From assembly GCA_030295235.1 (NCBI GenBank), contig AP026176.1:124001-188000 (forward strand): a stretch of 64,000 nucleotides of DNA, written 5' to 3'. Both the position numbers and the translations under genes were made by a program. The stretch's first letter is position 1, and each line of letters starts with the position of its first letter. The notes beneath the pieces are model-generated. The model was not told the DNA's origin and did not search any database. It was given only the letters and a program-made list of their open reading frames with translations. This DNA comes from Fistulifera solaris. Taxonomy: Eukaryota. This document shows positions 34,746-47,724 of this stretch, in pieces.

Positions 34746-35594
34746 ATGTCGTCGTTGGATGACATGCCATCCGACGAATCATCCAGTGTTCAGGAAGTTG
34801 CCGCGTTATGGGAATTGAGTGAACAAGAACAGGAAGAACTTGTTGATTTGCGACAACGACTGCTCGATGTACAAAGTCCTTTGAATCAATGGCGCGATTT
34901 AGTGCGATTCCTACGAGCCCGACCAGGAAATGTGACCGCCGCCGAAACCATGTTTCGTCAAATGGTGCAGTGGCGGACCGTCCACCAAGTCGATGCTACT
35001 TTAAAAACATACACACCGCCTTCGGAAATGCTTCGCTACTATCCCGGTGCCTTGTTGGAAGGTTTCGATCGGGAGGGTGATCCTGTCTTTGTGTCTCGTT
35101 TGGGTGTCACCGATGGGGTCGGTTTGTTGCACCGTTACGGCAAAGATGAAATGATTCGACACGCCATTTGGATACGAGAACTGGTGGTACAGAAAGTAAA
35201 AGAAGTAGAAGAGAAACGGGGACGGCCCGTGCGGAGAATTTGTTTGATCGAAGATTTGCACGGTTTGAGTTTGAAAACGCACGGCCATCGGGGTTTGCTT
35301 TCCGCGTATGGAGAAATCATGCGTCTTGATCAAGACAATTATCCCGAAACTGCGAAAAAGTTACTAATTGTCCGGGCCCCTACATTGTTTCGTATGATTT
35401 GGTCGATGGCCAAGCATTTTTTCGATCCAGGAGTCGTCCGGAAAATGGTCTTTTGTGGTGTCAGTGATTACCAAACTGTACTGGATCAGTATGTGGAATT
35501 AGAGGTGTTACCGGAAGAAATTGTTCCGGGAATAGGACGTGGGAAAGCTGTGGAAGGTATGCCATCCGATTTTTTGGGAGGTCGACTGCCTTGA
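34746..35594 (+). CDS. CRAL-TRIO / Sec14-like lipid-binding protein
   Basis: 'LVRFLRAR', 'GFDREGDPV', 'IEDLHGL' and 'QDNYPETAKKLLIVRAP..F..IWSMAKHFFDP'. Confidence 0.92.
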   Translation: MSSLDDMPSDESSSVQEVAALWELSEQEQEELVDLRQRLLDVQSPLNQWRDLVRFLRARPGNVTAAETMFRQMVQWRTVHQVDATLKTYTPPSEMLRYYPGALLEGFDREGDPVFVSRLGVTDGVGLLHRYGKDEMIRHAIWIRELVVQKVKEVEEKRGRPVRRICLIEDLHGLSLKTHGHRGLLSAYGEIMRLDQDNYPETAKKLLIVRAPTLFRMIWSMAKHFFDPGVVRKMVFCGVSDYQTVLDQYVELEVLPEEIVPGIGRGKAVEGMPSDFLGGRLP

Positions 35595-36392
35595 AATAGA
35601 GAAAAATTCGGCATGAAGTTAGTTGGGAATAGTGATAACGTTAGCTGTGGAGCTTTCGTTACTTTCTTGTTGTTGTAGGTTTCATCATGTCGTCGAGCGC
35701 GGAACGTCGTCTTGTCCGTGTTGTCCTCACGTTCGTGGTGTGTGGGATCTTGACTCAAGATACGCGCTCAAAGACCAGATGGAGTTTAGAAGTCTGCGAA
35801 AGATCCATTCTTGGATCTTCATAGGAATACTGGAAGGAATTTATTATACTTTACTGATTTAAATCCTCGACATTCCCAGGTGCCTCCAGGCTGTGGGCGC
35901 TCGTTTGTTAGGTTCGCCTTAGCGCGGGGGATGTTTTCACGTCTCCAGAAAATCTGGAGACCGAGAACCGCTGGGTATATAGTGAATACGGAACTCAACG
36001 GTTCGCAAGGCACTTCGACGTAAACTTCCATGACAGATAAAGATTATTTCATTTCAACAACAGCACATAATGTTTGCGGAACATATTACATTCAAGCTCG
36101 AAAGACAATAACTCATGACTGAAGTACAGTCGTGGAAAAGTTGCTCTACTACAGTTTCGACTATAGTGCAAGCTGTTTTCTTTATTTGTATACAGACGGA
36201 AATTCTGAAATGCTGCGCCACGCTTTTTTGTTGCGACGATGGTTGATGGCGGTTGACGGCAAAATCTTTTTGGTTGTCATGGCATTTTTATCATCCTTGT
36301 TTCTCATCCTATTATCTATTTCGACAAGTCGATCGATTCGCCGACAGAATACAAGCCACGATAGTTCATTTAACAAGCCAAAGAATGCACAG

Positions 36393-39300
36393 ATGACAGG
36401 AAGGACGGCCTTTTGTATTACCTTCCTATGGATATCGTTGCTTTCCTGGCAATTGATGGCGTTTGCTCCTCGTCCTCATCCGCCTCGTACAACACCCACA
36501 ACGTCCATGGCACCCAATTTCCTCGAAAGTATCCGTCAAGCTTTCTTCAAAACCGAAAAAGAGATTCTCTTGAGGGACTTTCCCGTGCCGGATTCGGAAG
36601 CCGTACGAAAAACGCTGTCTCTCATTGCCGTCCATCCGCAACAAAAAGAGAACAAGAAGAAGAAAAAGAACAATATTTTCCACAGCATACAGCAATGGTG
36701 GAACCAACAGGCTTTTGCACGCAATGATGATGATTTCGTTTTGCAAAAGGATGTGGAGATTCTCAGTGCCGAGGAATACCTTTCCTTACGTCGGGAACTG
36801 CGACCCGATTTTCAAATTCCGATCAATAGCAATCCACCCATTACTGTCGATGTCGAAGAAGCTATTCAAAAATCAGAGATAAGCAAAGATAGAGTCCGAC
36901 CAAGACCGGACTTCACACCATCTACCAGTTTCGATTCAGTTAACAATGATCCACAGGTGATTCTTATCGTTCCACAGACGACTCCCGCTAATGTGGATGC
37001 ATTGCGTCCGCAACGCGATTCGGTACGTCCAATCTCCACAACTCGGGAAACACAACCGAATCAGCCCGCACGGACATCGTACCTGGAATCTTTGGAGGCT
37101 GTTGACCGAGTCGCTCGTTCGGAGGGAACTTTGCGAGAGTCGTCGTCGTATTTAGAAAGCTTGGATGCATCGGAATCTTTTGCCAGTCGCGTATCCCAGA
37201 TACCTCGTCAACAAGAGTTGGAAGCGCTGTCAAATCGACGGGAATGGGGAACGGAAGAAACGTTAATGCCACCGTTGGAAGATCCAGGGATCGCATCCAG
37301 TGATTCGAACTATTTGGACGTTGCAGTGATGAAAGAGGAGTCGCTCAAAACGCTTTCAGCGCAACAAGTGTTGGAAAATGATCGAAGTCAAGTTCCATTT
37401 GTTGATATACCAAAGCCATCCGGTCCAACGGGAGTTATAGCATCGGTGTCGTACTTGGAATCGTTGGAGGCTGTCGACCGAGTCGTTCGACCGGAGGCAA
37501 CTTCGCGGCAGTCGTCATATTTAGAAAGCTTGGATTCGGATGCATCGGAATCGTTTGCCGGCCGCATGTCCCTAATACCTCGTCAACAAGAAACGACGGC
37601 TACAGCAATGTTGAACCAACAGGGTTGGGGGACCAAAAGGAGACCACACTACCGTTGAAAGAACAACGGGTCACTTTCAGTGATTCAAGCTATTTGGACG
37701 GGGCAATTATGAGAGAGGAGTCGCTGAAATCACTTCCAACACAACAAGTACAAGAAAGTAGGCAATACTCATCGCTACAAGAGATGGAAGATTTAAAAGG
37801 TGCAATCAATACTTTCACTGATAATAATGTCCGAAACCAACTCGATCAAGGAGGCACATCTGAGGTGACGAAAGACGATACACCCGCAGAAATAGACCCA
37901 ACAGCCTATAGAGTTTCATTACAGCAAGAATCACTGTTCACGATGGGCGAATCTGCTGCCGATTCTGACGATTTACAAAGCTCAACAATCAGCTCGGAGG
38001 AAACTGCCAATAAATCCCGTGTCGGGTATAAAAGAGAGTCTACCCGTCCAGTTATACCACAAAGAGCTTCTTTCTCGCCCGTTCGGTCAACTGTAAAAGA
38101 TTACAACTCAACCGGTTCCAGCCCGTATCTCGCGTCGATGAGAGGATTGAAAAGCAGCCCATTCAACGATGAAAAGGAACCAATTATTGATACAAGGAAA
38201 CCTCGCAAGTCGTTTGAAGCGACAGGAATCGGAACATTTTCACCCGTTCGTGCTTCTATCAAAAATGTGAATTCCACAAGCTCCAGTCCATATCTTACTA
38301 ATTTGCGTGGGCAAGCAATTGCGCCATTTGATTTTAACGCAGCAACGTTTGCTGCATCAGCGAAAAGATGAATCCGTAACGCCCAATGAAGATACCACTC
38401 CGCTGGAGGCTGACACTCCGGATCATTCTGCGACACAACGAACATTTGCCGATGACTTGTTCTGGTCCCCGCAAAGAGCGCAACCCACAAAATCTTCCTT
38501 TGCCCCCGTACTCTCAGGAATTAAATACGTCAATGCTACAAGTTCAAGTCCCTATCTCACTGCTTTGCGAGGAACAACGACGACGCAGCCTCGCATGAAT
38601 TTGTTGAGACCGAAAGTGACAACCGATATGCAAGCCAATCAGTTACCTGTGGGGTTAAAAGACGTGAATGAACCGGTAGGACCCGTAGGTGCATCCCTCT
38701 CTCCGGTTCGCCCTTCTATCAAAAACATGAATTCGGCAAGTTCCAGCCCGTATCTCGACGCACTGAGAGGACGTACAATGCAGTCCTTCGAAGCGATGCA
38801 TGTCAGCTTCGTTCCAACAAATAATACCGTCGCAAAGACCCTAACGCGTCCTCCGGGTGCTTCCTTCTCACCCGTTCGCTCGACAATAAAGAATGTTGAC
38901 TCGACCGGATCTAGTCCGTATCTTGCCACGCTCAAAGGACGCACGATGGCAACATTCGAATCCATGTATAGTGCTAGCCGAACTTCGGACCGAACAATAG
39001 CGTTATCGGCGACAGAAACAAAAACAGCTCGACCAATGGGTGCATCCTTTTCGCCAGTGCGCTCTTCAATCAAAAACATGGACTCGAAAAGTTCCAGTCC
39101 GTATCTCGACGCACTGCGAGGACGTACAATGCAGTCCTTCGAAGCGATGCATGTCAGCTTCGTTCCAACAAATAATACCGTCGCAAAGACCCTAACGCGT
39201 CCTCCGGGTGCTTCCTTCTCACCCGTTCGCTCGACAATAAAGAATGTTGACTCGACCGGTTCCAGTCCGTATCTTGCCACGCTCAAAGGACGCACGATGG

Positions 39301-42300
39301 CAACATTCGAATCCATGTATAGTGCTAGCCGAACTTCGGACCGAACAATAGCGTTATCGGCGACAGAAACAAAAACAGCTCGACCAATGGGTGCATCCTT
39401 TTCGCCAGTGCGCTCTTCCATCAAAAACATGGACTCGAAAAGTTCAAGTCCGTATCTCGACGCACTGAGAGGAAGTACCATGAAGTCTTTTGAAGCGACG
39501 CCTGTCAGCTTTGGTCCTTCAAACACGGTCGCAAAAACCCCGACGCATCCTCCCGGTGCTTCCTTCTCACCCGTTCGCTCGACAATAAAGAATGTTGACT
39601 CGACCGGTTCCAGTCCGTATCTTGCCACGCTCAAAGGACGCACGATGGCAACATTCGAATCCATGTATAGTGCTAGCCGAACTTCGGACCGAACAATAGC
39701 GTTATCGGCGACAGAAACTAAAACAGCTCGAGCCATGGGCGCATCCTTCTCTCCGGTTCGCCCTTCTATCAAAAACATGGACTCGAAAAGTTCCAGTCCG
39801 TATCTCGACGCACTGAGAGGACGTACAATGCAGTCCTTCGAAGCGATGCATGTCAGCTTCGTTCCAACAAATAATACCGTCGCAAAGACCCTAACGCGTC
39901 CTCCGGGTGCTTCCTTCTCACCCGTTCGCTCGACAATAAAGAATGTTGACTCGACCGGATCTAGTCCGTATCTTACCACGCTCAAAGGACGCACGATGGC
40001 AACATTCGAATCCATGTATAGTGCTAGCCGAACTTCGGACCGAACAATAGCGTTATCGGCGACAGAAACAAAAACAGCTCGAGCCATGGGTGCATCCTTC
40101 TCTCCGGTTCGCCCTTCTATCAAAAACATGGACTCGAAAAGTTCCAGCCCGTATCTCGACGCACTGAGAGGACGTACAATGCAGTCCTTCGAAGCGATGC
40201 ATGTCAGCTTCGTTCCAACAAATAATACCGTCGCAAAGACCCTAACGCGTCCTCCGGGTGCTTCCTTCTCACCCGTTCGCTCGACAATAAAGAATGTTGA
40301 CTCGACCGGATCTAGTCCGTATCTTGCCACGCTCAAAGGACGCACGATGGCAACATTCGAATCCATGTATAGTGCTAGCCGAACTTCGGACCGAACAATA
40401 GCGTTATCGGCGACAGAAACAAAAACAGCTCGACCAATGGGTGCATCCTTCTCTCCGGTTCGCCCTTCCATCAAAAACATGGACTCGAAAAGTTCAAGTC
40501 CGTATCTCGACGCACTGAGAGGAAGTACCATGAAGTCTTTTGAAGCGACGCCTGTCAGCTTTGGTCCTTCAAACACGGTCGCAAAAACCCCGACGCGTCC
40601 TCCCGGTGCTTCCTTCTCACCCGTTCGCTCGACAATAAAGAATGTTGACTCGACCGGATCTAGTCCGTATCTTGCCACGCTCAAAGGACGCACGATGGCA
40701 ACATTCGAATCCATGTATAGTGCTAGCCGAACTTCGGACCGAACAATAGCGTTATCGGCGACAGAAACTAAAACAGCTCGAGCCATGGGCGCATCCTTCT
40801 CTCCGGTTCGCCCTTCTATCAAAAACATGAATTCGGCAAGTTCCAGCCCGTATCTCGACGCACTGCGAGGACGTACAATGCAGTCCTTCGAAGCGATGCA
40901 TGTCAGCTTCGTTCCAACAAATAATACCGTCGCAAAGACCCCGACGCATCCTCCCGGTGCTTCCTTCTCGCCCGTTCGCTCGACAATAAAGAATGTTGAC
41001 TCGACCGGATCTAGTCCGTATCTTACCACGCTCAAAGGACGCACGATGGCAACATTCGAATCCATGTATAGTGCTAGCCGAACTTCGGACCGAACAATAG
41101 CGTTATCGGCGACAGAAACAAAAACAGCTCGACCAATGGGTGCATCCTTTTCGCCAGTGCGCTCTTCAATCAAAAACATGGACTCGAAAAGTTCCAGACC
41201 GTATCTCGACGCACTGAGAGGACATACAATGCAGTCTTTGGAAGCGACGCCTGTCAGCTTTGGTCCTTCAAACACGGTCGCAAAAACCCCGACGCATCCT
41301 CCCGGTGCTTCCTTGTCACCCGTTCGCTCGACAATAAAGAATGTTGACTCGACCAGTTCCAGTCCGTATCTTGCCACGCTCAAAGGACGCACGATGGCAA
41401 CATTCGAATCCATGTATAGTGCTAGCCGAACTTCGGACCGAACAATAGCGTTATCGGCGACAGAAACAAAAACAGCTCGACCAATGGGTGCATCCTTTTC
41501 GCCAGTGCGCTCTTCAATCAAAAACATGGACTCGAAAAGTTCCAGTCCGTATCTCGACGCACTGAGAGGACGTACAATGCAGTCCTTCGAAGCGACGCCT
41601 GTCAGCTTTGGTCCTTCAAACACGGTCGCAAAAACCCCGACGCGTCCTCCGGGTGCTTCCTTCTCACCCGTTCGCTCGACAATAAAGAATGTTGACTCGA
41701 CCGGCTCTACTTCGTACCTCGATTCGCTGAAGGGACATACTATGTTATTGACTGACTTAAAAATCGAGAATCTTGTGTCCGAAAACACAACGGATTCTTT
41801 TGCTTCGCTGTCGACAAGCCAAGAGCTGCCACGACCTTCTGGTGTATCCTTCGCGCCAGTTCGCGCTTCGATCGAATACATGAACCCAAAAAGTCCCAGC
41901 CCATATCTCGAATCGCCCGATTCGACGCCTGTTACTTCGGTTCCTGCAGATGAATCAACAACAACAACACAAGCGAAAGCCATACATACTCATGCTTCCT
42001 TCTCGCCAGTCCGTTCATCGATAAAAATGTTGATTCGACCGCCTCCACTCCCTACCTTGATGCGTTGAAAGGGCATACCATGCCGCCCGATGGTCGTGAA
42101 GGATCATTTGTGTCACTACCAAGCCGAACAATCAATACGTTTGATTCAAATCTTTTGTCTCAACAGTCGGCTGATTTGCACCAGCACTGCTTAAACGAAA
42201 AACAAGAACGTCGCAGAACAGATCATTCATCTACGATCAATGAGACTAGCGTACCCCGTTTTGTGGTTTCGTCGAATCTGTCAGGCTTTCGCCCCACACC

Positions 42301-42673
42301 AGCGAGTGAAGATTTCCGCGAGTCGTCCATTCTAGATAATAAGGAGAATAATCAACCCGCTTCCCAGGACTTGCAAATTTGGCTTAATGAAGCTCGCAAG
42401 CACGCACCATTGCTTCAAGCAGGTCCTGATAAACCAGATTTGAAAAATAGTGTTCGAATGATGTCGTCGCCTATAGCGAGTCCGTACCTCGACAAGCTTA
42501 TCTCGTCACCTCGTCAAGAGTCTCCCAAGCCGCAGGGTAGCTCTATTGTTCACAAAACGAGCCGATGGTCACCTAGAAACGGTGGCGGCCCCGACGCAGC
42601 GGACTTGAAACATAAAGTACTCATGTCTTCATCTTCATCGAACCCCTACTTGGATAGCTTACGGCAAGAATGA
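36393..42673 (+). CDS. Giant plastid-targeted disordered tandem-repeat protein (FSPVR / YLxxL modules); frameshifts at ~37630, ~38365 and ~42025
   Basis: Signal peptide 'MTGRTAFCITFLWISLLSWQLMA|FAP' followed by a transit peptide. Four abutting ORFs share the SYLxxL/SPYLxxL motifs. Confidence 0.8.
38688..41740 (+). repeat. Coding tandem repeat, 348-351 bp unit (two related half-units), ~8.5 copies
   Basis: Near-identical units start at about 38691, 39042, 39393, 39741, 40092, 40443, 40791, 41142 and 41490. Confidence 0.95.
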
Positions 42674-42779: not shown

Positions 42780-45700
42780 TTATGACCTCTGTTTTGTAAG
42801 CATTTGTTTTGTATACTCCCATATCGTGATTGCACCGGTGACGTGGACGTTCAGACTGCGAATTATACCGAATTGCGGTATTTCGACACATTCGTCCACA
42901 GCGTGGAGGTATTGAATTGGAATGCCTTCTTTTTCCTTGCCTAGTAAAAGGACTGTCGGTCGATCGGGGAAGGAAAAATCGGATAGTTGGACGCTCGTTG
43001 AAGTCTGTTCAATGCCAAGAATGAAAAATCCTTCTTCTCGTTTCTTCGTCAACCACTTTAGAAGATTCTGTCAATGTTCACGTGCAAATAAAATTAGACT
43101 GCTGCACGATAGAATCGCGAGAAGACATATATTTCAGCAAAAGACATCTCATCGTTTGATCAATTTTCCATCAAATGGCAATCGGAACAGATCTTGGTAA
43201 TTTATCAAATAATCACGGATGTAGCGACGATAGCAACAAAGAATACCTTTGACTCACCTTCTCTTTACATTCTTCGACGGTAATCCAGTCTCCAGCTCCA
43301 ACACTAATACTCTTAAAATTATCCATTTTGGCAACTTTCTTGTCAGGGGATGACTAGGGAATCTACCCCAAATATTTCCGACGTTCGAGCTAATCCTCCT
43401 AGATTGGGCACTTTGTCGATAAGACTAGCGCACACAATCAAGTTTTGTTTCGTCCGGCCTGCAGCTGTTCGAAGCCGGCGCTCAGATATGCTTTCGAGAG
43501 CCAAATTCAACGCGTCCAAAGGAATGATTTTTCGCTGAAAATTCACGACGTCACAGACAACGGTAGCGCTATTTTGCGAATCATTTGTTTCGTCTTCGCC
43601 TTCCTGCAATAGCTTCCATGTCGGTGCGTCACCGCCACGAGACTCCTCATAAACCATTTGAAGCCCATCTTTGATTACTTCAACTAAGTGACTGGGAAAA
43701 GCTTCACCGCCTTCATCCACGGAAATGTCCAATATACCTCTGACAGTGCATACTTCATTTACTTGGTATTGGTTGAAAAAATCAACCTGCTTTGACCGTA
43801 AACGCTTCATTTCGGCGTTCTCATCCAAATGTTTGAATATGGTCCTGAGATACCAAATGCTGTCGAATTTGTCTTCCACGCATGTCACGTCGATTTTCAG
43901 CGGAACTAGTTCGTAAACAAGTAATTGAGCTATTGCCCGGCTGAAGCCTTGTGTGCTGCTGAGCCATGGGATGACCCCTGAAATGAGTGCATCCAATGTA
44001 TTATTGTTGGAGTCTGATGTTATAGCAGGCAAAAACTCTTCCTTGTGCCTTCCAACAACCAAGTTTCCAGTAATTATCATTAATGAAGAAATAGTTTGCA
44101 GAGATAGAGCATGCCTTGTAATGTTGTTCACCAAAGAGTCTACGAAAAGCTGAGGGAAACGTCTCGCGCATTGAATGGCCAGAATTTCTATGAAGTAGCG
44201 GATTTGTCCGTGAAGGGTCTCTTCAAGAGCCTCAAAGATTCGATCACGCACAAGTTCCACCAGAGGCGGCGTCAAAAACTTAGACAGAACACACAGTGCC
44301 TGCCATCCCCTCATTTTTGTGCAATATTCTGGACTGCCGATCATCACCATACTTGTAGTTTTCTTTGATCCTTTCTTCGCAGAAGGGCGCACTGCATCAA
44401 GCAATCGTTTGACCATGGGACTAATTAATGAAGTTGACACATGCTCGGGTAGCTCTGGGTTCTCAGCCAACTCCGCAAAGAATGTAAGAAGGATCCCTCT
44501 GGTGACACTCTGATCGTGAGCAGTCACCGAAACTCCAATACCCGTTTCTTCGGGAAATAACGGATTCTTCGTGGTATGGGATACAGCATCTTCGACAGCA
44601 TCGTCTTTTTGTAGAAGCAGCTTTTCGAGATCATCCAAGTAAGGAATAGCAGCAAGCCCTTGGTTACTTGCACTTTCTGTCCGCAGCCAGCCAACGACCG
44701 CGTAGGCCAAAACAGTCCTGCTTATAAAAGACTTCTTTGTACCAGCCAATTCAATCATTTGACGAAACGTGGAGCGGATAGGTGTGGCAGTATTTTTGTT
44801 GTCCAACAGCCTGGTGTACTCGTCCAGCATTAAATCCGATCTGAAAACAAGACGGCAAATCCCATCCAACATATGTAGATTTTCTTTAGCAGTCTTACAT
44901 TCGGCCACGACCTTAAGCAGAGTCTTTATCACCGAGCTCAAGCAGTTTACATGCTGTTCTAAACCCGTACCAAGAGTCAAAAGATATTTGCCGGCAGTAA
45001 TAACACAGTCAAAAAGAAGGGTGATTGCCTCAGCAGGAGTAGCTTCAATGTCTTCGGCGGCAACAGAGAATAGCTTCTCCGAGGCGATTCGAATTTCGTC
45101 GTCATTCGTCGAAGCAGAGGCAAGGATAGAAAACAAGCACGACAAAGCACCCCACCGTGCAAAGTGAAACAAAGACCTGCAAGCTTGCTTGTCGTCTCTC
45201 GAAGATATTCCAATTGGACTGAAATCCATTACCAGCAAAGCGTTCACCGCAGAGAGAGCTTGGGGTGTGTTTATTTCTACGCCAGCAAATAGGGCGCCAT
45301 ACAATAGACAGAGCCCTTGCAGTATTTTCACGTCGGCCTTTCTGACACCGACCAGAAGTGGCAAGTTTTTGTCAACGATTGACGCGTTACCGCTCGAGAG
45401 AGCCATGCTGGACGGAAACGCTTTATGAACTATGCGAAATTGACAGATCAGCCCCGAGTAGGTCTGGGAAAGAATACGTGCGTTCCCTGACCGAAAGCTT
45501 CCTTCTCGGGTAGCATCCTGGCCATTCTGCGCAATAAGCCCAATAATGTGGTGGTGAATAAAGTCGAATCCATTGGTGAGAACGCGCTCAACATTTGAAG
45601 GGGGTGGCATCATTTGATTGGTAGAGTCGACAACCAAGTCTCCGTTTCCCATTCCCGAAAGTAATTGTGCTTGGCAACCATATTCTAGCAACAGTAAAGC

Positions 45701-47724
45701 TCGAGCGACTCTATCAGCCATTGACCACGACGGAGTTGCTATTGCGACAGGTGCGTGATTTATTCCTTTGTTAATGGCTGGCCATAACAACTCACTTGAC
45801 GTACTAGTCGATTCAGTTGCAGCCGAGGTTGCCAGAAAGCAAAATGAAACGACCGCTTTAGCAGTCACTTTGTCCAATGCCGAAACACCAATCTTCGGAT
45901 TCCATGATTCCTGCTGTGTTGATGAAACGAGTATTCCATCTACAAAAGCGGTTGCAATAGGACCACCGGCACCGGCAGCCCATCCAGGTTTCTCAGAATT
46001 CAATCCTGTTTGAATCCATTCTCGCAATGCCGGATTAACTTTGTCCACGAGAGGATAGAGACCAAGTACCGCCAAAATACTTGGAGGTGAAAGTGCTTCT
46101 TCCGCCACGGTATGCTGCAGCACAACTGCGAGGTTTTGTAAAAGAGAGTCTTTGTACTTTTGCACCACCGAGCCCGAAGAGAAAAAGACTCTCAAAAGCA
46201 GTAGCAACGTTCGTCAAAACTTGTTGCCCCACAGGAAACTTAGCACCGCTCTTTGCCATGGCCGACGCCGAACATTCCAACAACTGAACTACCGTCTTGT
46301 GGTGCATCTGACACACCACCGCGTTGGACAATAATCGAGACAGGAATCGCCCGCGAATGTCAGAATTGTCTAGCGTCAAAATGTAGTCGTACAAAAAGTC
46401 GTACATCATCTCCGCCATATCTTCGGCAGAATGCTTCTTTTGCCAACCTCTTCCATGTGCATGGTCAGGCCTACCGAATCCGATAAAGAATCGTACGACG
46501 GAAGGATAACATCAAATAGAAAATCCGGAGTAATACTGGCCAAGGGCGCACCCTTTTGTGACGATTGTCGGATGATCCCCGCTTCCCCGCGAAACAAGCG
46601 GTACAAGGTGAGTTTGCGGACGACGGGTAAATCCGGCGAGACCAGAATGCGGGCCAACAAAAGAAACGTCCAACGAAACGAAACGCCGGGGGCATAGTTT
46701 CTGCCTCATTGTTTTGACTCGCTTCCGCGAGCAATTCTTGCACCGAGCCCCATATCTGATCCATCAAATGCGGTTCTTGTTCCATTTCCGCCGTTTCGAA
46801 GCATGCTACATACTTGTACCACGATTTGTGGGAATGTTGTTCTTCCATGACACGCAGTAAATACAAACCCCGTCGTCGCAACAACTGCGAGTGTGATTCT
46901 TGTAGTGTTGTTTCCGTTCCACGTCGTGTCTGTTTCATCGGTGTGACGTTGTGACATCCTTGTTGTAAGCATTGATAAACGAGTTCCCATACTCTGGGTT
47001 GTGTCCAGGGCGATGCACTCTCTAGGAGGACCGGAAATAGGATACAGAGAACCGACGTGATCACCAAGAGTGATCGCGGAGATGAATCGGCCTCGTACAG
47101 CTCCCACATCCACTGTTCTACATGTTCGCAATGATTCGGCAACAATAAAGGAAGTAAGGAATGAATGATGGGACCCATCAATGCCGCTCGTTCGGCATCA
47201 TCGGTCAATCGAACGGCTTGTTGGATACCCCCCTTCAAAAGATCGAGACCCATGGTCGGACGTTCGAGTCGTTGCACCACGAGACACAAATTCTTCCATG
47301 GCTGATGAGAGTCTATAATCCGAATCATTTCGTCGGTTTGCGCAATTTGCGGGGGCAAGGGAATCGTCTCGTCGTGCGCAACCACAACAACATCGAGAAA
47401 TGCATCCAGTAATTCGGAAGATTCCTTCCAACAAACCGACAAGATCATCGATAAAGCATTGTTTTGGCTGTTATTGTGTTGATGCCAAAAGACAAGTAAC
47501 AGAAACAGTTTGTGCGAATTCGTTTTCTTCTTCCAAATGGAATCCACCCAAGACCGATCTTCTTCCTCAAAACCTTCGAAAAACGACGCAATGTTGGTCG
47601 TCGTCAAGACGGTGAGTGACGAGGAAGCCTGCAACAAACATTGCAACGCGGGTACGAGGGCTTTGAGTGACAGACTCTGCAACAGCGGTTCCACCGATTG
47701 AAACAGTGACTGCAATTTCGTCAT
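42780..47724 (-). CDS. TRM3: tRNA (guanosine-18 2'-O)-methyltransferase, TARBP1/Trm3 family (SpoU domain); intron 43068-43257; several frameshifts
   Basis: C-terminal SPOUT motifs 'ASLIDKVPNLGGLARTSEIFG', 'LLGKEKEGIP' and 'VEIPQFGIIRSLNVHV', preceded by 'NFQRKIIP' and a long ARM-like N-terminus split over 5 ORFs. Confidence 0.88.

Follow-up and report, generated by a model that had tools for sequence, protein, structure and literature searches.

A giant, probably plastid-imported repeat protein of the pennate diatom Fistulifera solaris and its family of two-motif modules

In Phaeodactylum tricornutum, Rubisco is linked by PYCO1 (Phatr3_J49957), a basic protein (isoelectric point, pI, 10.03) with six repeats of ~80 amino acids (PMC10288592). 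Its small-subunit sticker KWSPRGGS is reported to be present in six copies, with an essential tryptophan and with tetrads on the small subunits, alongside a tyrosine motif for self-association (GTGYNP, in five repeats) and two weak large-subunit helices at the C-terminus (AAEWGSMNQ and ASEWASMNT). The same study places KWSPR/Q in Phaeodactylum only in PYCO1 and its short isoform, and describes a BLAST search that returned no homologue in other algae (PMC10288592). EPYC1, CsLinker and PYCO1 each have 5-6 stickers. Proteins of this kind can be sought by the FLIPPer criteria, which are a largely disordered chain, repeating structured elements and a spacing of 20-120 residues; the same criteria gave 13 proteins in Chlorella, only one of which is the linker (10.1101/2024.04.09.588658). 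For Thalassiosira pseudonana, another study describes a diatom without a known linker, in which large-scale tagging gave no repeat protein of the expected kind (10.1101/2023.10.26.564148). How Rubisco is packed into the pyrenoid in diatoms beyond Phaeodactylum is the open question that we address here, using a repeat gene at 36393-42673 on the + strand of a 64,000-nucleotide stretch of the Fistulifera solaris genome (assembly GCA_030295235.1, contig AP026176.1, positions 124,001 to 188,000). We call this whole stretch the window, and all coordinates refer to it. The locus holds one intact gene, and on balance we regard its product as a plastid-imported, mostly disordered, high-valency scaffold or tether made of repeated two-motif modules, a reading that we hold to be reasonably probable.

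One intact gene behind three frame breaks

Four open reading frames (ORFs) on the + strand combine into a single 2,093-amino acid frame with one terminal stop after three 1-bp corrections (an insertion of A, a deletion of A and a second insertion of A, in that order), all of which fall inside runs of A. A sequence-only reading of the window had joined the same ORFs by three corrections of 1-2 bp into a protein of about 2,090 amino acids; the joining and the length stand, while each correction turns out to be 1 bp. Three frame breaks in the window, together with an array that might be mis-assembled, would also fit a decaying pseudogene or an assembly chimera, with the four ORFs not forming one gene. 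The evidence on this point comes from public contigs of two runs, X1 and X2 (the latter a wetland metagenome), which were aligned to 35400-38680 and so cover breaks 1 and 2, and from database proteins (designated P0001 and so on), one of which, P0006, serves to judge break 3. At break 1, an A is inserted behind 37634 at 16.6/16.6 depth in X1 and 8.5/8.5 in X2. At break 2, a base is omitted at 38363 at 8.5/8.5 depth in X2 and at 35.1/68.7 in X1, where the support is a single 48-letter contig and the remaining X1 contigs terminate. A 3,013-letter contig of X1 extends across 35400-38098 with 0 other letters and one gap, so that X1 represents the same organism; its depth is equal over intergenic DNA and gene, and it is therefore treated as DNA, not RNA, and gives no sign of transcription. 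Run X6, presumed to be RNA, aligned to just 35400-35661 of this stretch and is uninformative on expression.

The corrected reading is also found in GenBank. P0012 (NCBI 'hypothetical protein FisN_33Hh001, partial [Fistulifera solaris]') is identical to it at 769/769 residues, reads GWGTKKETTL over break 1 and AASAKDESVTP over break 2, and ends where the tandem array starts. Break 3 splits one module, with ASFSPVRSSIK on one side and NVDSTASTPYLDAL on the other, and P0006 (310 amino acids) crosses it in frame with 91/94 and 212/216 identities on the two sides (303/310 overall). Since breaks 1 and 2 are contradicted by the contigs and P0012 and break 3 is bridged by P0006, the comparison identifies all three as homopolymer errors of the assembly in a gene that is intact in the organism. 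An intron is ruled out at break 1, because the sequence past it, in the other frame, repeats a segment found earlier (GWGT..ETL.P..E......SDS.YLD.A.M.EESLK). An orthologue, P0002, keeps head, modules and tail in one frame over 1,487 amino acids. With two of the breaks missing from independent contigs of both runs and from the GenBank protein, the third crossed in frame, and all of them lying in A-runs, the pseudogene or chimera explanation is largely refuted, and we assign it a very slight chance. By these alignments, the locus is one intron-free gene identical with the partial GenBank model FisN_33Hh001. Public gene models end short at the repeat, and the gene is now seen full length for the first time, with ~1,320 further residues (array, last modules and conserved tail) in comparison with the database entries.

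Miscounts of A-runs by one base amount to three errors per 6.3 kb in this one gene of the assembly. Such 1-bp homopolymer errors may also have divided other genes in the window, and apparent pseudogenes there need caution.

Leader and architecture of the protein

In diatoms, a phenylalanine (or W, Y or L) at position +1 after a signal peptide marks import into the plastid stroma, as part of an ASAFAP-type bipartite presequence. The first 23 residues of the window protein are hydrophobic and end in LMA, with F24 following directly. Among the first 20 residues past this site are six P, four T, two R and zero D or E, and the first acidic residue appears ~21-22 residues after it. Read by eye, with a slash for the cleavage, the site is LMA/FAP in the window protein, VVA/FAP in P0002, LVA/FTT in P0004 and TQA/FLL in P0005. 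The phenylalanine at +1 is thus kept in all four family members with a complete-looking N-terminus (window protein/P0012, P0002, P0004 and P0005), including P0005, which is otherwise dissimilar in sequence. Both the start of the window protein and the A/F site are common to P0002, P0004 and P0012. An in-frame ATG at 36210, 61 codons upstream (36210-36392), would add a second hydrophobic stretch (IFLVVMAFLSSLFLILLSI); as MTG[RK]TA is the common beginning of the orthologues and the GenBank model starts at 36393, the ATG at 36393 is favoured. The leader is most likely a diatom-type bipartite presequence that directs import into the plastid stroma.

Raphid diatoms also make many extracellular Ser/Thr/Pro-rich proteins, and it is on this background that a different explanation leans, namely a secreted or cell-surface protein (mucin-like, adhesion or frustule) with A/F as an ordinary signal-peptidase site. 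The signal peptide, a combined S+T+P content of 34% and a giant, fast-evolving tandem array would all suit such a protein. The conservation of F at +1 in 4/4 N-termini, the dissimilar P0005 included, argues against it, as do the transit-peptide-like character of the next ~20 residues, a mature chain with just one Cys, and the fact that conservation resides in short linear motifs and not in bulk composition. We consider secretion improbable and retain import into the stroma as the preferred destination.

The protein contains 15.8% S, 10.4% T and 8.1% P, and its charge is unevenly distributed: the pI is 9.61 for the whole protein, 4.86 for residues 25-560 and 10.55 for the array (Table 1). Near the N-terminus, residues 38-150 hardly vary between the window protein, P0012, P0004 and P0002. 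Farther along, the acidic region contains an internal duplication with 59% identity over 108 amino acids (internal BLASTP). The basic body contains the array, for which Tandem Repeats Finder gives 93% matches and a score of 5064, far beyond chance. Its unit of 116-117 amino acids consists of two modules (SFSPVR.SIKNMDSKSSSPYLDAL and SFSPVRSTIKNVDSTGSSPYLATL), and the units are 90-99% identical to each other. Seventeen and a half modules lie inside the array. In total, there are 23 modules, 22 intact and one across break 3, with starts 55-61 amino acids apart. The C-terminal 114 residues have 59/114 columns invariant among the window protein, P0006, P0002 and P0001, and the two variant modules there end in SPYLDKL and NPYLDSL. 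Much of this architecture had been recognized in the sequence-only reading, which described a bipartite plastid leader cleaved at MA/FAP, a low-complexity protein rich in Ser, Thr and Pro with a periodic build of sticker-spacer type, about 23 modules, SYLESL repeats at the N-terminus (four copies here), and PYLDSL and RWSPR near the C-terminus; our analysis agrees with it on each of these features, the position of RWSPR included.

On the opposite strand, a 1,114-amino acid ORF is restricted to the array. It was rejected as a gene because it is a mirror artefact of a stop-free repeat, and all homologues match the + strand. Variable columns of the array are distributed as 11, 7 and 25 over codon positions 1, 2 and 3. 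This excess at third positions was rejected as a proof of strand, since the antisense ORF shares its third positions with the + frame.

Using the predicted local distance difference test score (pLDDT) of AlphaFold2 (AF2) models as a proxy for disorder, a piece of four modules (11-row alignment) has a mean pLDDT of 43.6, with 214/234 residues below 50. The model contains exactly four helices by DSSP (H22-33, H78-96, H139-149 and H195-215), each starting at P-Y-L, and the few residues above 50 cluster at these helices, all of which have pLDDT <70. The N-terminal 421 amino acids (four rows) give a mean of 40.1 with 368/421 residues below 50 and scattered short helices; even the nearly invariant residues 38-150 reach 35-57 per 10-residue block. 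These models predict an almost wholly disordered mature protein, in which each module contributes a single short helix of low confidence.

Table 1. Features of the repeat gene, with positions in the window
Feature	Position	Strand	Remarks
Open piece, frame 0	36201-37655	+	
Open piece, frame 2	37406-38368	+	
Open piece, frame 0	38271-42065	+	
Open piece, frame 2	41954-42670	+	
Signal peptide, residues 1-23	36393-36461	+	MTGRTAFCITFLWISLLSWQLMA; cleavage before F24; read from translation by eye
Transit-peptide-like stretch	36462-36524	+	FAPRPHPPRTTPTTSMAPNFL; P/T/R-rich, without acidic residue (composition)
Most conserved N-terminal region, residues 38-150	36504-36842	+	KDFPVPDSEAVR.TLSLIAVHP ... 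LQKDVEILSAEEYLSLRRELRPDFQIP; alignment of four sequences
Acidic region, four SYLESL motifs	37068-37541	+	two copies of a ~125-amino acid internal duplication
Frame break 1	37635-37638	+	AAAA, one A short in window; extra A in X1 and X2
Three diverged modules preceding the array	38069-38567	+	
Frame break 2	38363-38366	+	AAAA, one A surplus in window; one base fewer in X1 and X2
WSPQ (W691)	38463-38474	+	context DDLFWSPQRAQP
Antisense ORF, 1,114 amino acids	38639-41983	-	restricted to array; third codon positions coincide with + frame
Tandem array, 351 bp x 8.7 copies	38688-41716	+	Tandem Repeats Finder
Last two modules, 22 and 23	41847-42067	+	module 23 (41997-42067) spans break 3
Frame break 3	42023-42027	+	AAAAA, one A short; inferred from P0006 reading SSIKNVDSTASTPYLDAL in frame
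Conserved C-terminal region	42329-42670	+	two variant modules, GPDKPDLKNSVRMMSSPIASPYLDKL and GPDAADLKHKVLMSSSSSNPYLDSL
RWSPR then NGGG (W2059)	42563-42577	+	
Stop codon	42671-42673	+	

A family of two-motif modules in diatoms

Alignment of the modules resolves two conserved blocks, S-[FY]-[SA]-P-[VT]-[RK]-x-x-[IV]-K followed by a Ser-rich run that ends in Y-L-[DE]-x-L. We built a 37-position profile from 14 of the 23 window modules and searched it exhaustively against 1,835,955,588 representative proteins. Eight proteins were found at E<=0.001, seven of them repeat proteins with the same module in a lineage-restricted set; the eighth, P0008 (E 9.6e-05), was rejected as an unrelated bacterial-type protein. 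A broader profile, A3, gave eight matches among 7,999 scored candidates; this and one other further search contributed P0010, P0011 and P0012. None of the relatives carries a name other than 'hypothetical protein'. Counted by regular expression, there are 14 module copies in P0001, 11 in P0002, 18 in P0003, three in P0004, 21 in P0005 and four in P0007. P0002 is a full orthologue with the same head and the same tail around its 11 modules, while P0001 is a C-terminal piece. P0004 (GAX23114.1, FisN_33Lh001, partial) is a second F. solaris copy with 63% identity over the head. P0003, P0005 and P0007 are more distant, with modules of the form SYAPTKPGVK...YLDDL or SFAPTKPSVK...YLxxL. The matches define an apparently new, unrecorded family of disordered diatom proteins that carry a plastid address and are built on the two-motif module. 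No profile-search relative is named as a model diatom, and the family is likely absent from Phaeodactylum or Thalassiosira.

Other resources added few leads. No Pfam family exceeded the cut-off for any piece of the window protein or for seven relatives; the only matches were sub-threshold ones of low-complexity or coiled-coil type. A word-index homology search with the 421-amino acid head among proteins of near lengths had no match, and the relatives emerged in the later profile search. At E<=10, a PDB sequence search returned no chain for the tail or an array piece; profile A3 matched two nanobody chains in PDB (E 0.14 and 1.3), which resemble complementarity-determining region 2 and were rejected as chance matches. 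In the ESM Atlas, the head had no usable match and the array led to one cluster at 0.75, below the lead level. Further C-termini were sought in two metagenome scans (protein, and alignment A6), where 325 and 497 pattern matches yielded 0 confirmed cases. Word searches of a literature collection with the module motif words, the FisN locus tags and the accession gave no relevant paper, and one for a Fistulifera pyrenoid linker gave no paper concerning this protein.

Two of the distant relatives have features of their own. P0005 and P0010 are ~2,150-2,225 amino acids long with 18-21 modules, each placed between APKMTTVPMG and a longer stretch of amphipathic character (..AV.GLSSF). Hydrophobic segments rich in Gly and Ala lie close to the N-terminus of these proteins, and their C-terminal region is coiled-coil-like, with sub-threshold matches to NPV_P10 and BLOC1_2. 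They may represent the same kind of scaffold in a membrane-anchored form.

The explanation that we favour for the window protein combines these observations. The leader would deliver the protein into the plastid stroma, where the mature disordered chain would comprise a short conserved N-terminal region, the acidic SYLESL stretch, a basic body of 23 modules and the conserved C-terminus. Each module, an extended basic motif plus a Ser-rich run ending in YL[DE]xL from which a short predicted helix starts, could weakly bind a multimeric partner that is abundant in the stroma, so that the whole protein would work as a high-valency scaffold or tether. Several points weigh against this explanation. 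The call of import comes from an A/F rule applied by eye plus the conservation of the site, the module helices are of low confidence in a model made from a shallow alignment (11 rows), and the array copy number is that of one assembly. In addition, hydrophobic membrane-like segments occur in the distant P0005, P0010, P0011 and P0007 and are missing from the window protein, which means that the family may not share one location.

The genomic surroundings were inspected as well. At 38071-38365, two 298-letter X1 contigs align without gaps, one with 0 and the other with 32 differences; the latter fits the diverged second copy (P0004, FisN_33Lh001), which implies two homeologous copies in the organism. 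Over 35400-38680, some contigs of run X2 are nearly identical to the window (three differences in 1,421 letters), and others diverge from it by ~4-8% within this gene, so that close relatives of this diatom occur in that wetland. Just upstream of the gene, 35924-35957, 36109-36143 and 36182-36215 are matched by short pieces of otherwise unrelated X1/X2 contigs, whose ends are loose on either side and whose depths add up to a raised sum. These segments (35924-36215) look like dispersed short repeats, and there are no local direct or inverted repeats within 35500-36500. The neighbouring genes are a CRAL/TRIO (Sec14-like) protein at 34746-35594 on the + strand (Pfam E 9.9e-29) and a 792-amino acid ORF at 43343-45721 on the - strand with no Pfam family at E<=0.01; nothing points to a functional connection between these neighbours and the repeat gene.

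Candidate partners and comparison with described linkers

The sequence-only reading had argued from the KWSP stickers of PYCO1 that RWSPR and the repeated aromatic-Ser-Pro words, alternating with YLxxL helices, are stickers of a very high-valency stromal or pyrenoid matrix scaffold, and the argument from PYCO1 does not survive comparison with the orthologues. WSP[RQ] occurs twice in the 2,093 residues, as FWSPQR (residue 691) and RWSPRNGGG (residue 2059), in both cases outside the repeats. A motif scan of the full protein found 0 matches to KWSP, GTGYNP, GYNP, EWxSMN or W[RK]xxL. In the orthologues, the first word reads FSSTQR (P0002) or LWS-AQ (P0004), and the second RRSPRNGGG (P0002) or SRRNGVG (P0001). 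The tail alignment has W80 variable, and S81, R83, N84, G85, G87, P88 and D89 invariant, so by this alignment the conserved element is SPRNGGGPD and not the tryptophan. In none of the modules listed for the family members is the aromatic position filled by W; the residue there is F, Y or L. Composition-preserving shuffles gave two or more WSP[RQ] in 0/20,000 cases and at least one WSP in 1,740/20,000, in a post hoc test that disregards the real excess of SP dipeptides. With W replaced in orthologues and missing from the modules, the inference from KWSP fails; F. solaris appears to have acquired at most one PYCO1-like word, and a PYCO1-type KWSP mechanism is not supported by these comparisons.

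The protein could still be a Rubisco-condensing linker or pyrenoid matrix tether of Fistulifera, that is, a functional analogue of PYCO1, EPYC1 or CsLinker, in which YLxxL helices, [FY][SA]P motifs or both would serve as Rubisco stickers and the 30-35-amino acid variable stretches as spacers. Judged by the features that FLIPPer uses, the AF2 proxy indicates disorder, the distance of 55-61 residues between module starts falls within the required spacing, and a recurrent structured element is predicted at low confidence, as one helix at each of the four YLxxL motifs of the four-module model. The basic body (pI 10.55, close to the 10.03 of PYCO1), the stromal-type leader and the rarity of two WSP[RQ] words in shuffled sequences are consistent with this possibility. 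Linkers are typically lineage-restricted, as is the family of the window protein. With no homologue of PYCO1 found by BLAST in other algae and no known linker in T. pseudonana according to those two reports, the place of a linker is vacant in diatoms other than Phaeodactylum. Much argues on the other side. As 13 Chlorella proteins fitted the same criteria and one was the linker, a linker-like build alone is weak evidence and would, by our estimate, be right in roughly one case out of ten. In orthologues, both WSP words lose their W even though neighbouring residues are invariant, all the PYCO1-type motifs scanned for are missing, and a protein of 2,093 amino acids with 23-29 motifs and a 500-amino acid acidic head is far from the 5-6 stickers of described linkers. 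The distant relatives also look membrane-anchored. We therefore hold a linker of this kind to be unlikely.

Within the scaffold or tether explanation, Rubisco or the pyrenoid would be the single best candidate partner, albeit a doubtful one. The most novel version is that the family fills, in pennate diatoms of the Fistulifera type, the missing role of a Rubisco-matrix scaffold or tether, with 23-29 sites (YLxxL helices, [FY][SA]P motifs or both) binding form ID Rubisco and, in F. solaris, the C-terminal RWSPR-N-GGG word adding a PYCO1-like contact to the small subunit; we think this version quite unlikely. If it were true, a red-lineage linker would be known for the first time beyond Phaeodactylum, and its type of sticker would be new. 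F. solaris is genetically transformable. Its basic, disordered protein, with a plastid address and a conserved pair of motifs recurring every 55-61 residues, is a concrete candidate for a diatom linker. Should it be no linker, the protein still establishes a family of diatom plastid proteins, unrecorded so far, that is based on short linear motifs.

In comparison with known systems, PYCO1 comes from another raphid pennate diatom and is, like the window protein by our reading, plastid-targeted, mostly disordered, basic and built of tandem repeats, and both proteins place conserved aromatic residues in short repeated motifs. The KWSPRGGS sticker is resembled by the single RWSPR-N-GGG word of the window protein, but six repeats of ~80 amino acids with KWSPR/Q(GGS) stand against 23 modules of 55-61 amino acids with different motifs, and no sequence kinship was detected between the two in a comparison made through the published motif descriptions of PYCO1. 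The green-lineage linkers of the EPYC1, CsLinker and SUPA1 type are small, have 5-6 stickers and have proven binding to form IB Rubisco, whereas the window protein, known from sequence alone, combines at least 23 motifs with a long acidic head and a conserved tail, and belongs to an organism with form ID Rubisco. Like these green-lineage linkers, the window protein is predicted to have a disordered chain and, at low confidence, a single short helix in every repeat; a spacing that could bridge Rubisco, a high pI and the restriction to a single lineage are also shared.

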